64,000 bases of DNA, taken from assembly GCA_017474765.1 (NCBI GenBank), contig JAFVGW010000032.1, forward strand, positions 66,989 to 130,988, in the 5' to 3' direction. The notes beneath the pieces were generated by a model that was given only the letters and a program-made list of their open reading frames with translations, was not told where the DNA came from and ran no database searches. Below, piece after piece: positions 40,348-44,071 of the stretch (position 1 is its first letter; every line of letters starts with the position of its first letter). Origin of the DNA: Salinivirgaceae bacterium. Its GTDB lineage: Bacteria > Bacteroidota > Bacteroidia > Bacteroidales > SZUA-534. A program made the position numbers and the translations under genes.

Positions 40348-41241
40348 CTAAAAATATCCCAACTTCTTGCGGTCTTCCATCGCTGTTTCTGAGCGTTTGT
40401 CGTCGGCGCGGCCGCCACGTTCGGTGACGCGGGTTGCGGCAATTTCGGCAACAATATCCTCGAGCGAGTGAGCCGTGGAAAGTGTTAATCCTGTGCAAGT
40501 TATGTCGCCAATGGTTCGGCAGCGAACTTCCTTCTCAACCACCACTTCCTCGGGGCGGCGCCGAATGCAATCTTCGGCGGCAAGCCACTGTCCATCTCGT
40601 TGAAACACTTTGCGTTTGTGAGTGTAGTAAAGCGACGGCAGTTCGATTTTTTCCTGAAGAATGTACTGCCAGACGTCCATCTCGGTCCAGTTGCTGATTG
40701 GGAACACGCGGAAGTGCTCGCCCATATTCTTGCGTCCGTTGAAGATATTCCACAGTTCGGGCCGCTGATTTTTGGGGTTCCACTGCCCGAAATCGTCGCG
40801 GTGCGAGAAAATACGCTCTTTGGCGCGGGCTTTTTCCTCGTCGCGGCGGGCGCCACCAATGCAGGCATCGAATTTATGGCGTTCGATAGTGTCGAGCAAA
40901 GTGGTGGTTTGCAGTGCGTTACGACTTGCATTGAAGCCCGTTTCCTCTTTCACGCGGCCAGTGTCAATCGATTCCTGAACCGAACCCACAATCAGTTCGG
41001 CGCCCAACCGCTTCACCAGCGCGTCACGGTATTCGAGCGTCTCGCGGAAATTGTGTCCCGTGTCGATATGCACCAGCGGAAACGGCAGCCGTGCAGGATA
41101 GAAAGCCTTGTAAGCCAGGTGAGTAACCACAATCGAGTCCTTTCCACCCGAAAAGAGAATTGCGGGCCGCTGAAACTGCGCCGCCACCTCACGAAGAATG
41201 TAAATCGACTCTGCCTCAAGTTCTTGTAAATGCGTTTTCAT
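40348..41241 (-). CDS. cysD: sulfate adenylyltransferase subunit 2
   Basis: PAPS_reduct/ATP-PPase fold. ILFSGGKDS P-loop-like motif. 297 aa. Confidence 0.9.
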   Translation of the reverse strand: MKTHLQELEAESIYILREVAAQFQRPAILFSGGKDSIVVTHLAYKAFYPARLPFPLVHIDTGHNFRETLEYRDALVKRLGAELIVGSVQESIDTGRVKEETGFNASRNALQTTTLLDTIERHKFDACIGGARRDEEKARAKERIFSHRDDFGQWNPKNQRPELWNIFNGRKNMGEHFRVFPISNWTEMDVWQYILQEKIELPSLYYTHKRKVFQRDGQWLAAEDCIRRRPEEVVVEKEVRCRTIGDITCTGLTLSTAHSLEDIVAEIAATRVTERGGRADDKRSETAMEDRKKLGYF

Positions 41242-41288
41242 ATCTCAAAATCATATTTTGCCGCAAAATTAGAGAGATTATCCGTATT

Positions 41289-41337
41289 AACCTATCTATT
41301 TAATAGGTTTATGTGCAAAATACGATTTTATACTTAC
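41289..41337 (-). promoter_or_regulatory. leader signature of the cysDNH operon: palindrome plus conserved 21-nt box
   Basis: AACCTAT-N7-ATAGGTT (41289-41309) and AAAATACGATTTTATACTTAC (41317-41337). Confidence 0.45.
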
Positions 41338-41385
41338 TGAACAGGGCGAATGTGCGTAGTTGGGGGGGCGCAGGGAAATTATTAC

Positions 41386-41422
41386 CCATCCATAACTCAA
41401 TATTTTTTCGAGTTATGGACGG
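41386..41422. repeat. hairpin repeat copy 1 (12 nt downstream of the ATPase stop)
   Basis: CCATCCATAACTC-N11(A/T-rich)-GAGTTATGGACGG, followed by TGAATATTT as in copy 3. Confidence 0.8.
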
Positions 41423-41433
41423 TGAATATTTTT

Positions 41434-42861
41434 CTAATCAGCGAACAAATCGTCCATAACTACCTCATTATTAACAATTCCCGAGTGAACGCCAGGCAGA
41501 ACGCCGTAGGTTGTAATCATTGTCAGGGAAAGCGGTTTGTGCGTTTTGGTTTCCTCAATGAAATAGGCCATTTTCATTCTGAGATTAGCCTCGTAATCCT
41601 TTGATATTGAATATGGTGTCTGTGAGAATTTTATTTCGCAAACATTGATAATGCGGTCGGCGCGGTCAATAAGCAAATCAATTTGAATGCCTTGCGAAGC
41701 GGTGGTGCCAGCCTTCCGCCACGAGCAGGAATTGGTGGCTATTCCGCTGATTCCCAACTTCCTTTTTACTTGTGCAAGGTGCTGAATACAAACTGTCTCA
41801 AAACTGAATCCCTGCCAGGCAACCACTGTTTGCGACGAAAGATTGTTGGTCCAAAAAAGATTGTCCTTCGAGTTGTTGCCACGCACAAATTTGAAGTAAA
41901 AAAGCAGATAATTGTCTGATATTCTGTAAAATGAATTTCTACTTGTGCTCTTGAATTTCGAGTACGACGTTATAAAATCGCAGCGCTCAAGATTGTCGAG
42001 AACCTTTGACAGGCCGCCCCCCGAAAACGACGTTTCGGCAATGATTTCAGCACGTTGCAAGCCTTCGCGCTTTTGGGCGAGAGCCGAAACCACCTCAATA
42101 TATTTATCTGCCTGATTGAAAAGGGCGTTGAAAAGTTCGTCAAATTCGTTTTTCATCACCGCATTCTTCTCGAAAAACAGGCGGTTAATGTTCTGTGCAA
42201 GGCTCTCGTCGGGCTTCAAAAGGCTTAAATAGAATGGCACGCCGCCAAAAGTCATATAGCATTGAACAATGGTGTATCTATCCCACATACAGCCACTTGC
42301 GTGAAGCATCTGCTCGCACTCGCCAAGCGTGAAGGGGCGCAAATATATCTGCGCGGTAATGCGGTTGTGCAGACCGCCCTTGTTTTCAATGAGCTTGTCC
42401 ACCATCCACGACGTTGCCGAGCCGCAGGCCACAAACATAATGTCGGTGCGTTGCGCCGCCCACGAGTTCCAAAAGTATTCAAGCGCCGCAACGAAACTGC
42501 TTTTATGAGTGTCTATCCAGGGCATCTCGTCAAAGAAAATCACCTTGCGTTTTGCCGCAGGAAGCGTGATTATCAGCGTTTTAAGTTGATTAAAAGCGTC
42601 TTCCCAGTTTTTCAGTTCGGGTGCGAACTTCGATTTTGAAAACAGTTTCAATTGCTCGGCAAAATGTTGTAATTGAACTCGTTGCGGCTGATTTCTAGCG
42701 CCTGTATATGCAAAAGTCATACGTTTTGCGAATGTCGAATTCACAAGGAATGTCTTTCCAATACGCCGCCGCCCGTAAACAATGACGAATTCGGAACGTT
42801 TTGATTTATAAAGCGTTTCCAAACTCTCAACTTCTTTTGCCCTACCTATGATACCACACAT
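41434..42861 (-). CDS. AAA+ ATPase of the archaeal-ATPase/DUF234 type
   Basis: Walker A GRRRIGKTFLV, Walker B VIFFDEMPW. C-terminal region is DUF234-like. 475 aa. Confidence 0.85.
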   Translation of the reverse strand: MCGIIGRAKEVESLETLYKSKRSEFVIVYGRRRIGKTFLVNSTFAKRMTFAYTGARNQPQRVQLQHFAEQLKLFSKSKFAPELKNWEDAFNQLKTLIITLPAAKRKVIFFDEMPWIDTHKSSFVAALEYFWNSWAAQRTDIMFVACGSATSWMVDKLIENKGGLHNRITAQIYLRPFTLGECEQMLHASGCMWDRYTIVQCYMTFGGVPFYLSLLKPDESLAQNINRLFFEKNAVMKNEFDELFNALFNQADKYIEVVSALAQKREGLQRAEIIAETSFSGGGLSKVLDNLERCDFITSYSKFKSTSRNSFYRISDNYLLFYFKFVRGNNSKDNLFWTNNLSSQTVVAWQGFSFETVCIQHLAQVKRKLGISGIATNSCSWRKAGTTASQGIQIDLLIDRADRIINVCEIKFSQTPYSISKDYEANLRMKMAYFIEETKTHKPLSLTMITTYGVLPGVHSGIVNNEVVMDDLFAD

Positions 42862-42908
42862 TTTGCTAAATTTTAACAGAACAAATATATGGATTTTTCA
42901 ATTATTCT

Positions 42909-42945
42909 CCATCCATAACTCAATATTTTTTCAAGTTATGGACGG
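42909..42945. repeat. hairpin repeat copy 2 (upstream of the ATPase)
   Basis: CCATCCATAACT-N13-AGTTATGGACGG. Confidence 0.8.
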
Positions 42946-42962
42946 GTAATAATAATTATTTG

Positions 42963-42999
42963 CCGTCCACAACTCGATATTTTTGTGAGTTATGGACGG
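42963..42999. repeat. hairpin repeat copy 3 (upstream of the ATPase)
   Basis: CCGTCCACAACTC-N11-GAGTTATGGACGG followed by TGAATATTT. The 22-nt direct repeat GAGTTATGGACGGTGAATATTT is shared with copy 1. Confidence 0.8.
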
Positions 43000-43150
43000 T
43001 GAATATTTCAGTTTAGCGAAAGAAAATTTACGGTTATGTGATTGATTGTCAAATCAATTAACATACCGATACCCAACCAAATCATACCTAAAAAGGTTGG
43101 CTATCGCCATAAATGCGGATTTTTGAGCCCGTTTGCGGAAAAGGCGCGGA

Positions 43151-44071
43151 CTAAAGTTGTTCCAGACGCAGCATCTCGTCAATGCTGTGGCGGGCGGCTG
43201 TGAGAGTGGCGGTATCGAGCGTGATTTCGTCACCGCCAATGCCCCTAACGCACTCATACACATCGCCTAACGTGGTTGCCTTCATATTGTGGCAGACGCA
43301 GTTTTTCGACAGGGCGAAGAACCGCTTGTCGGGGCAGGCGAACTGCAGGTGCTGCACAATGCTGTTTTCGGTGCCGATAATGAATTCGGTGGCAGTGCTT
43401 CGCTTTGCGTAATCCATTATCTGCGTTGTACTACCAATATAATCAGCAAGTTGCACAACCTTTGCCGAGCATTCGGGGTGGACAAGCAGCAATGCGCCAG
43501 GGTGCTTCTGACGAGCCTGCTCAACGTTTTGCGGCGTAATGAGCAAATGCGTGGGGCAGCCGCCAGGCACAAACTGAAACTGCTTTTCGGGAATCTGCTG
43601 CTGCACCCAACCGCCCAAGTTACAGTCGGGTATGAACAGAATCTTATCGTTTTTGATATTCTTTACAATCTTCACAGCCGACGACGACGTGACGCACACA
43701 TCGGTCAAGGTTTTCAGGCTTGCGGTGGTGTTTATGTACGAAACCACCGTGTGGTCGGGATATTTGGCCTTCAGTTGCAAGAGCAATTCGGGCTTCACCT
43801 GCTCGGCCATCGGGCAGCCTGCTTCGGCATTCGACAGAATGACACGCTTTTGCGGCGACAGAATCTTCACCGTTTCGGCCATAAACCTTACGCCGCACAT
43901 CAGCACGGTTTCGGCATCCGACTTGGCCGCCTGTTGGCTCAATCCGAACGAATCGCCCACATAATCAGCTACTTCCCAAATGTCGTGGCTTTGGTAGGCG
44001 TGCGCCAAAATGCAGATTCGCTTTTCTTTTTTCAGGCGAATGATTTCCGATTGCAGTTCACTTGTCAGCAT
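43151..44071 (-). CDS. nadA: quinolinate synthase
   Basis: ILAHAYQ, FMAETVKIL, HPEC and CxxM motifs typical of NadA. 306 aa. Confidence 0.9.
   Translation of the reverse strand: MLTSELQSEIIRLKKEKRICILAHAYQSHDIWEVADYVGDSFGLSQQAAKSDAETVLMCGVRFMAETVKILSPQKRVILSNAEAGCPMAEQVKPELLLQLKAKYPDHTVVSYINTTASLKTLTDVCVTSSSAVKIVKNIKNDKILFIPDCNLGGWVQQQIPEKQFQFVPGGCPTHLLITPQNVEQARQKHPGALLLVHPECSAKVVQLADYIGSTTQIMDYAKRSTATEFIIGTENSIVQHLQFACPDKRFFALSKNCVCHNMKATTLGDVYECVRGIGGDEITLDTATLTAARHSIDEMLRLEQL

Follow-up and report, generated by a model that had tools for sequence, protein, structure and literature searches.

What do the hairpin repeats do that bracket a lone ATPase gene between two housekeeping genes? 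The question is raised by a 64,000-nucleotide stretch of Salinivirgaceae bacterium DNA (GenBank assembly GCA_017474765.1, contig JAFVGW010000032.1, positions 66,989 to 130,988), here called the window and always meant at its full length. One copy of an imperfect hairpin follows the stop codon of the gene, and two stand in tandem before its start. An initial, sequence-only reading proposed either a gene cassette delimited by structured repeats, attC-like or REP-like, or an autoregulatory operator duplicated at both ends. The operator alternative provides the best fit, by way of the phasing of the palindromes with an inferred promoter. We consider it fairly probable that the palindromes are cognate autoregulatory operators, and that through a duplicated copy the gene has become a direct-repeat cassette, subject to deletion or exchange. 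The observations that carry this reading are the confinement of the repeat to one locus, a separate palindrome for each paralogue, the promoter phasing, empty sites that hold a solo unit, and a divergence of the cassette that is decoupled from that of its flanks.

Palindromic units at the cysD-nadA locus

Inspection of the sequence places three hairpin cores at 41386-41422, 42909-42945, and 42963-42999. The arm pattern CCRTCCAYAACTC, allowed one mismatch, has six matches in the window, which are precisely the six arms (shuffle mean 0.30), and 0 of 100 shuffles of the window reach six. The arrangement of three hairpins around the ATPase gene is thus borne out by sequence and by arm count. Of the repeat as first delimited, the 37-nucleotide (nt) core and a 22-nt direct repeat, GAGTTATGGACGGTGAATATTT, at 41410-41431 and 42987-43008 are present, but the full unit is longer. 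A repeat search returned a 55-nt unit with the 37-nt palindromic core inside it, in three copies that are 87% identical to the reference copy and start at intervals of 1523 nt and 54 nt. The locus is laid out as follows.

40348-41241, minus strand: cysD-like gene (PAPS_reduct), a housekeeping flank, by profile match
41377-41431, no strand: unit 1, the downstream copy; core 41386-41422; 135 nt ahead of the cysD start; z of the DNA fold -4.15 and -4.84
41434..42861, minus strand: predicted ATPase-nuclease gene, 475 amino acids (aa), from Pfam ATPase_2, PADLOC PDC-S27, and AlphaFold models
41451-41461, no strand: extra half-site CGTCCATAACT within the last ATPase codons (..VVMDDLF..), retained in orthologues
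42882-42889, minus strand: inferred -7 promoter box TATATTTG (consensus TAnnTTTG), 20 nt upstream of the ATPase ATG
42900-42954, no strand: unit 2, the promoter-proximal copy; core 42909-42945; centre 38 nt upstream of the -7 box
42954-43008, no strand: unit 3, the distal upstream copy; core 42963-42999; start 54 nt from that of unit 2
43151-44071, minus strand: nadA, a housekeeping flank, by profile match

All three genes lie on the minus strand, and the profile matches agree with the names first given to the two flanking genes. Hairpin 1 is 11 nt from the ATPase stop codon, 47 nt separate the ATPase ATG from hairpin 2, and the loops measure 11-13 nt. Folded as single-stranded DNA, each unit is more stable than its shuffles (z -4.2 to -6.8). 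On the minus strand, the tandem units at 42900-43008 can also cross-pair into one 109-nt structure (-27.6 kcal/mol, z -8.6). The three palindromes supply six half-sites, to which the copy in the gene adds a seventh. Orthologues keep this in-gene half-site as TCGTCCATAAC[T/C]A, and the downstream repeat of a paralogue, C34:47475, likewise starts within the last codons. The 3' end of the ATPase gene and the repeat may have a common origin.

Stable hairpins in intergenic DNA could be generic REP-like or MITE-like repeats (repetitive extragenic palindromes or miniature inverted-repeat transposable elements), or terminators of nadA and the ATPase gene, in either case unrelated to the protein. This explanation is very improbable. 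In the source genome (G000, a 3.63-Mb assembly of 62 contigs with the locus on contig C24), the arm has 65 matches with up to two mismatches, and only the 7 at this locus pair into palindromes. Half-site 12-mers with one mismatch give too many chance matches genome-wide unless a palindrome is required. The idea of a REP-like element, part of the sequence-only reading, does not survive this confinement of paired arms to one locus, by which a generic repeat is ruled out; the hairpins are absent elsewhere, and each paralogue has its own type. An intrinsic terminator was also rejected: the three units, with their loops of 11-13 nt, are missing from the terminator scan output and lack a G+C-rich stem with a T-run after it; the upstream copies precede the promoter. 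No Rfam family reaches its threshold; a scan of 41200-43200 returned eukaryotic microRNA models at 20-31 bits against cut-offs of 61-230.

The encoded protein and the palindromes of its relatives

The protein encoded between the units is predicted, from profiles and structural models, to be a member of the PDC-S27 family that combines an AAA+ ATPase of ORC/Cdc6-STAND-like type, a winged helix, and a PD-(D/E)xK nuclease domain. An AAA+ ATPase domain (residues ~7-215) is followed by a helical lid, a winged helix (~250-330), and the nuclease domain (~335-470). Pfam ATPase_2 (PF01637) matches residues 7-213 with 57.7 bits against a gathering cut-off of 33.2; AAA_16 and AAA_14 are above cut-off as well. 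HTH_34 gives a sub-threshold winged-helix match at residues 256-315. The DUF234-type ATPase of the sequence-only reading is recovered as an ATPase_2-type AAA+ protein whose C-terminus is weakly DUF234-like: PF03008 matches residues 343-414 below threshold, with 15.2 bits against a cut-off of 22.5, and DUF4143 gives a weak match, also sub-threshold. One paralogue (G000:C34:157114-157350) scores 23.4 bits for DUF234. In the part of the source available, DUF234 and DUF4143 are counted among the PD-(D/E)XK families (PMC3424549). The PADLOC PDC-S27 profile PDLC04984 matches over its full length (E 1.7e-200, residues 2-473 on model positions 2-473 of 474).

The AlphaFold (AF2) model of the protein has a mean per-residue confidence (pLDDT) of 85. 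Its Foldseek matches include the Walker-type ATPases 2qen and 2fna (PAB2304, SSO1545), the STAND proteins Apaf-1, CED-4, and plant NLRs, and Orc1/Cdc6 on origin DNA (2qby). A sequence search of the PDB with the same protein found only TnsC at E 0.07, which is not meaningful. Residues 333-475, modelled separately with 46 sequences as input, reach a pLDDT of 94.8 and match proteins of the restriction endonuclease (REase) fold, namely AF1548 (E 3.5e-4), R2 endonuclease, McrC, MspJI, SduA, LmuA, NucS, and Hjc. In these 46 sequences E355, D395, E409, and K411 (E23, D63, E77, and K79 of the domain) are invariant, as are the Walker A and B motifs GRRRxGKT and FxDE in the family alignment. The least conserved domain is the winged-helix stretch, with a mean pairwise identity of 39% versus 47% for the AAA+ domain. 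The ratio of nonsynonymous to synonymous divergence (dN/dS) against three orthologues is 0.045-0.060, which indicates purifying selection.

With the window gene included, tblastn finds ten gene copies in the source genome, at 40-53% identity. All 10 are preceded by a palindrome of their own, in 1-6 copies, with arm sequences that differ from gene to gene. The build is shared: arms of ~13-20 nt enclose an A/T-rich spacer of 11-19 nt, and tandem upstream arrays of up to six copies are spaced ~53-54 nt apart. A copy lies within ~30 nt after the stop codon in 6 of the 10 by score threshold, and in a seventh by eye. One paralogue (C55:25043-26119, L021) has lost ~115 residues, including Walker A, and the palindrome still stands upstream and downstream of it. 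A check of whether other paralogues carry the same flanks thus came out negative, each having an analogous palindrome of its own. This variation of the arms between cassettes also speaks against attC-like sites, and contig C24 is free of tyrosine recombinases. An integron was rejected on the same difference in arms; the four PF00589 matches in the genome are all on other contigs. Since each cassette holds a single gene and has arms specific to it, its own protein is the only candidate reader of the site. Recognition of each palindrome by the product of its gene would follow from these two features, paralogue-specific sites and a single-gene cassette.

Bracketing by repeats is shared with part of a second ATPase group. 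Among 1346 source-genome open reading frames (ORFs) of 300-900 aa, 24 have a repeat common to the 300 nt upstream and 150 nt downstream: 6 window-type ATPases, 7 AAA_14+DUF4143 ATPases (Pfam-confirmed), and 11 unrelated genes, several of which adjoin a dispersed GTAGGGACGCG-type repeat. A separate dispersed palindromic repeat, of the GTAGGGACGCGAT...ATCGCGTCCCTAC type, occurs at several intergenic sites (C6:15992-16056, C14:20442-20506, and the flanks of C31:75174-76406) and explains some of the non-ATPase genes with upstream and downstream repeats. The genome has 28 AAA_14/DUF4143 ORFs, and the repeat is seen in 7 of the 27 with enough flank. These seven (L118-L124) are C3:27309-28439, C10:82775-83971, C49:26890-28023, C58:102511-103632, C60:20575-21960, C34:69104-70393, and C61:172391-173671. 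Their downstream repeat lies within ~75 nt of the stop codon and starts within 30 nt in 5 of 7; not all of the repeats are palindromic, some being direct. C3:27309, the only one of the seven scanned against PADLOC, matches PDC-S01. By subgroup, proteins of ~375-400 aa show the repeat pattern and those of 430-460 aa mostly do not.

A one-genome-per-species scan returned 587 relatives, from which 79 loci were retained, 70 of them with full flanks. Most are in Bacteroidota, and some in Kiritimatiellae, Lentisphaerae, Succinatimonas, and Lachnospiraceae. Palindromes were sought between -200 and -40, with 400 random long ORFs of the source genome as controls. An upstream palindrome with a score of at least 10 is found at 55/70 family loci versus 26/400 controls, and one of at least 12 at 36/70 versus 9/400. 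In the 55 loci, the palindrome centre has a median position of 84.5 nt before the ATG; the medians for arm and spacer are both 15 nt, and an A4+ or T4+ tract is present in 40 of the 55 spacers. A repeat common to both sides of the gene occurs at 18/70 family loci and 10/400 controls.

Relatives of the gene also occur on 153 plasmid records, including those of Firmicutes, Campylobacterota, and haloarchaea; NZ_CP146964.1 (L149), NZ_CP087953.1 (L152), and NZ_CP096663.1 (L153) were among the records sampled. Outside Bacteroidota, 2 of 5 plasmid relatives have an upstream palindrome at threshold (Butyrivibrio and Desulfosarcina). The Butyrivibrio copy has a clear one, TTTTGGCGGAATATA-N14-TATATTCCGCCAAAA, at -93..-50. 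For the Paracaedimonas, Malaciobacter, and Halorussus plasmid copies, palindromes were recognized by eye only, which is suggestive and was not counted as evidence; the haloarchaeal one is short and lies ~60 nt upstream.

The position of the palindromes relative to the inferred promoter is that of an operator. The promoter box follows the consensus TAnnTTTG, which we take to be that of the Bacteroidetes-type -7 box; 47 of the 55 palindrome-bearing family loci have one, at a median distance of 31 nt from the ATG on its upstream side. Phasing was examined in 79 upstream regions, those of the 70 family loci and 9 paralogues, using the palindrome nearest the box. Both elements are present in 55/79 regions, and the palindrome is at most 75 nt from the box in 44 of these 55. 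The centre-to-box distances of the 44 cluster at 37-38 nt (10 regions), 47-49 nt (13), and 57-59 nt (9); in the window, the centre of unit 2 is 38.0 nt from the box. A period of 10.3-10.5 bp gives a Rayleigh R of 0.63 (nominal p ~2e-8, with relatedness ignored), and periods of 7-8 bp give 0.16-0.19. The palindromes would accordingly sit on a constant face of the helix with respect to the inferred promoter, which is the appearance of a transcription-factor operator.

The same arrays can be viewed in another way, as nucleation or parking sites for an ORC-like oligomer whose job is not transcription. Such an oligomer might keep the nuclease switched off on self DNA while no phage signal is present, or the sites might form the origin of a mini-replicon made by the excised cassette. 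The fold matches to Orc1/Cdc6 and the STAND clade suit this idea, as do the A/T-rich spacers, the six half-sites in the three window palindromes, and tandem arrays of up to six copies ~53-54 nt apart, which resemble iterons or origin recognition box (ORB) arrays. The presence of family members on plasmids of bacteria and haloarchaea (153 records) is a further point for it. However, known unwinding elements are much longer than spacers of 11-19 nt, nothing ties the family to a helicase or loader, and the phasing with the -7 box is more simply explained by transcriptional control. We therefore regard an ORC-like role as improbable.

Occupied, solo, and empty sites

If the units make the gene a cassette, sites should exist in which it is missing, and the sequence-only reading had predicted strains with a single hairpin between cysD and nadA. 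A search of 40 relatives with the 3.7-kb locus found this arrangement in three. In G003, G014, and G010, the cysD-side flank is followed by precisely one unit and then by the nadA-side flank, and the ATPase gene is absent. These solo-unit empty sites uphold the claim that the unit behaves as a cassette. They also count against an insertion sequence or MITE, a candidate rejected on the single locus, the missing transposase domain, and the retention of the whole unit at the empty site.

Other relatives differ in content. The site is occupied in G011 and G002, where the gene has two units upstream of it and one downstream. G007 (G007:C20, L101) is occupied too; its unit 1 is separated from cysD by an extra 4.7 kb, with genes for an RHS-repeat protein, an AAA_21/AbiEii-like ATPase, and a RhuM-family protein. 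In G013 (C25/C30, L103, L104), units 2 and 3 adjoin nadA and are followed on that contig by a Sel1+RNase_T protein; cysD, on a separate contig, adjoins a YhcG/DUF1016 nuclease and a BspA-type leucine-rich repeat protein. G006 (C86, L102) has units 2 and 3 beside nadA and, on another contig, a Y1 (IS200-like) transposase-like gene beside cysD. In G008, cysD and nadA are ~20 nt apart with no hairpin between them. Because occupancy and cargo vary in this way among relatives, the cysD-nadA site is a variable hotspot. The three solo genomes do not form one clade in a tree of cysD+nadA, where G003 pairs with the source genome as its sister (support 0.91) and the outer branches carry occupied genomes. 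The tree weakly favours repeated deletion from an occupied ancestor, low divergence and a recombinant region making it a weak guide.

The cassette has also been exchanged at this fixed site, its divergence being decoupled from that of the flanks. Between the source genome and G011, the ATPase ORF differs at 7/1428 positions, cysD at 31/894, and nadA at 21/921. The endpoints in G011 lie in or near the units. Unit 1 differs at 7/55 positions and unit 3 at 6/54, because two core types, with loops AATATTTTTTC and GATATTTTTGT, have swapped places between positions 1 and 3 in G011:C67 (L002) relative to the window. Against G002 the relation is reversed, with 207/1428 differences in the ATPase ORF (synonymous divergence, dS, 0.84), 24/894 in cysD, and 14/999 in the EamA gene. 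Aligned with the window at 41250-43650, the G002 locus L003 (G002:C1) has a tract of ~2.4 kb, comprising the cassette and part of nadA, that is 9-67% diverged between cysD and EamA genes that are 1.4-2.7% diverged. The ends of this tract are not at the hairpins; it points to allele replacement at a fixed site.

In the contigs of four metagenome runs covering 40900-43500, none joins the flanks via a single unit, a result that comes from assembled contigs only and is uninformative on excision. These contigs break inside hairpin units, and one contig each of X12 and X13 departs from the reference at 41365.

Away from cysD and nadA, the palindromes travel with the gene, and homology spans the stretch from the outer edge of the upstream palindrome to the stop codon. 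G015, G009, and G007 carry an 81%-identical gene copy with two upstream hairpins in another context. The window and the G015 copy are homologous between the stop codon and the outer boundary of unit 3 (query 1097-2658; -144..-10), a boundary that is the limit of homology to orthologues in other genomic contexts. Among other pairs, L035 and L040 (96% protein identity) share DNA from -104 to +1 in unrelated contexts, GGTGCGGAAA-type genes share -165..-10, also in unrelated contexts, and L092 and L094 share -100..+47, with the downstream copy included. Cassettes are also nested. In G009:C135 (L107) the order is palB x2, ATPase-B, hpA x2, ATPase-A, palB; in G000:C6:3500-9600 it is palB x2, palC x2, ATPase-C, palC, palB, with ATPase-B absent. 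In the nested arrays, a single hotspot next to a conserved secreted-protein gene is occupied by different cassettes depending on the species.

Two paralogue sites bring the number of sites with solo units to three. The C61 site is occupied in G010 and G004, and G002 and G014 have a solo palindrome beside other content. G008 and G013 are clean empties without a palindrome, relative to which the extra DNA of the source genome reaches ~95 and 130 nt past the palindromes. At C34:47475 the repeat unit is 115 nt long, its downstream copy starting in the last codons, and G003 is a precise solo site. Genomes disagree on where the shared segment ends there (2085, 2183, 2216), and part of a neighbouring gene is included. 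Ragged ends at these other sites argue for general recombination and against precise transposition.

This bears on the rival idea of a cassette that mobilises itself, with the palindromes as its ends or recombination sites. They would be bound by the ATPase-nuclease, which would cut at or beside them; the gene would be excised, leaving a solo site, and re-inserted at a matching or other palindrome, with host ligation and repair completing the reaction. Direct copies bracket the gene in 6-7 of the 10 paralogues, and 18/70 family loci have an upstream and downstream repeat. Solo units at three different sites, the nested arrays in G009:C135 and G000:C6, and unit boundaries that coincide with the outer edges of the palindromes and the stop codon would all be expected of such an element. 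The decoupling of cassette and flank divergence, the swap of unit cores between two near-identical genomes, and the invariance of the catalytic E-D-ExK residues also suit it. The competing label of a defence gene is unproven, the single PDC-S27 and PDC-S01 representatives being absent from the protective systems in the part of the study available (10.1101/2024.09.26.614923).

Still, the protein has no transposase, integrase, or HUH domain, and PD-(D/E)xK enzymes hydrolyse DNA and do not rejoin it. The repeat common to both sides is missing from 52/70 family loci. The clean empties at C61 (G008, G013) are palindrome-free, with an insert extending ~95 and 130 nt beyond the palindromes, and the variable ends at C34:47475 (2085, 2183, 2216), with their neighbouring-gene fragment, indicate general recombination. 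Where cassettes of different types abut, no hybrid palindromes are seen. Deletion between direct repeats of 55-115 nt requires no dedicated enzyme, and the helical phasing with the promoter favours a regulatory role. Self-mobilisation is thus possible but, in our estimate, rather unlikely.

Proposed self-control, cassette behaviour, and known systems

Under the preferred reading, that of cognate operators, the 37-nt palindrome in its 55-nt unit would be a private site recognised by the protein whose gene the copies enclose. Its tandem upstream copies, just upstream of the protein's own promoter and in a fixed rotational register, would most likely be operators for self-control of transcription, bound through the winged helix by a dimer or higher oligomer. 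The third copy, after the stop codon, would be a duplicate of the unit, by which the gene becomes a cassette with a direct repeat on either side. If these repeats recombine, a step for which host machinery is probably enough, the gene could be deleted and one solo unit left, and the same repeats could let cassette alleles be exchanged between lineages at one site. Binding of the protein, transcriptional control through it, and the role of the downstream copy are the parts of this scheme that we infer from sequence.

Several points weigh against it. The family loci are related to one another, so that the statistics overstate their independence. No palindrome reaches the score threshold at 15/70 of them, and 8/55 of the palindrome-bearing loci have no match to the putative -7 box consensus. 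The recurring copy directly after the stop codon is left unexplained by autoregulation alone. If the winged helix reads the arms, the two might be expected to covary; across 65 members (2080 pairs), the Spearman correlation with half-site similarity is 0.08 for the winged helix versus 0.11 for the AAA+ domain, a signal specific to neither, and high half-site similarity in this set is mostly between close orthologues. Finally, the invariance of the nuclease residues and the purifying selection on the gene mean that the protein must do more than regulate itself.

PDC-S27 and PDC-S01 are described, in the portions of these accounts available, as abundant single-gene defence candidates in which an ATPase is fused to a PD-(D/E)XK domain; they rank among the most abundant candidates in bacteria, archaea, and rumen microbiomes, and most PDCs still await validation (PMC12988326; PMC13356809; 10.1101/2025.11.08.687337). 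One representative of each was assayed in E. coli B against T7, T5, and T4, and neither is among the four protective systems in the available part of the report (10.1101/2024.09.26.614923). The main text of 10.1101/2024.01.29.577857, presumably the paper from which the candidate approach stems, does not contain 'palindrom', 'inverted repeat', 'PDC-S', DUF234, or DUF4143. Literature searches on DUF234 and DUF4143 ATPases, COG1672 and COG1373, PDC-S27 and PDC-S01, and AAA+ ATPases flanked by palindromes returned no description of cognate palindromes.

If each copy has a private palindrome by its promoter, each protein comes with a predicted DNA ligand, and binding, cleavage, and regulation become testable. 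Bracketing by direct repeats would explain why the gene is easily lost with solo units left behind, which would give a sequence signature for past insertions. The findings also raise the question of whether the PDC-S27 and PDC-S01 families are defence genes or self-propagating cassettes. In the boldest answer, PDC-S27 and part of PDC-S01 would be a novel type of selfish, self-recognising cassette that is not primarily defensive. The AAA+/winged-helix/nuclease protein would bind the palindromes private to its gene and employ them for excision, re-insertion, or swapping of the cassette, or for replication as an ORC-like mini-replicon, with neither transposase nor integrase involved. How common these genes are in 'defence islands' would in that case mirror the places at which such cassettes land and are tolerated. 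We hold this to be unlikely.

Among known systems, PDC-S27 is the closest. The window protein matches its profile over the full length, and the family is found in variable, defence-rich spots; the same cysD-nadA site holds AAA_21/AbiEii-like and RhuM-family genes in G007 and a YhcG nuclease in G013. In contrast to the window locus, accounts of the family mention no cognate palindromes in the parts available, and its defence role is that of a candidate only.

Archaeal Orc1/Cdc6 with its ORB inverted repeats and DnaA with its DnaA boxes are initiator AAA+ proteins with sites beside their own gene. The window family resembles them in combining AAA+ with a winged helix or helix-turn-helix, in inverted or tandem sites directly upstream of its own gene, in A/T-rich DNA between half-sites, in separate sites for each paralogue, and in the fold match to 2qby. 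Unlike these initiators, it has at least 10 copies per genome, so that not all can be origins, as well as a spacer of 11-19 nt, a C-terminal nuclease domain, and a copy after the stop codon. In iteron plasmids, the winged-helix Rep protein reads tandem arrays and an inverted repeat over its own promoter, which results in self-repression. The window protein belongs to a different family, AAA+ with a nuclease domain by prediction, and its repeats bracket the gene.

REP/RAYT elements consist of a gene flanked by copies of its own cognate palindrome, with different palindromes in different lineages; the REPs are dispersed in tens to hundreds of copies per genome, and RAYT is a Y1 HUH enzyme. The window gene is likewise flanked by its own palindrome, and its paralogues carry different ones. 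However, its palindrome is found only at its gene, and the protein is an AAA+ ATPase with a predicted REase fold.

Integron attC cassettes share with the window type single-gene units bounded by imperfect palindromes, arrays, variable spots, and presence/absence polymorphism. They differ in that attC sites have common core sites and a structure read by one integrase, whereas here the arms are private and the A/T tract of the spacer is what is common; the window contig has no tyrosine recombinase, and the palindromes stand upstream of a promoter-bearing gene. The empty sites have their nearest likeness in the solo long terminal repeats of retroelements, in that exactly one unit is kept between unchanged flanks. 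The window-type repeats are 55-115-nt operator-like units rather than retroelement ends.

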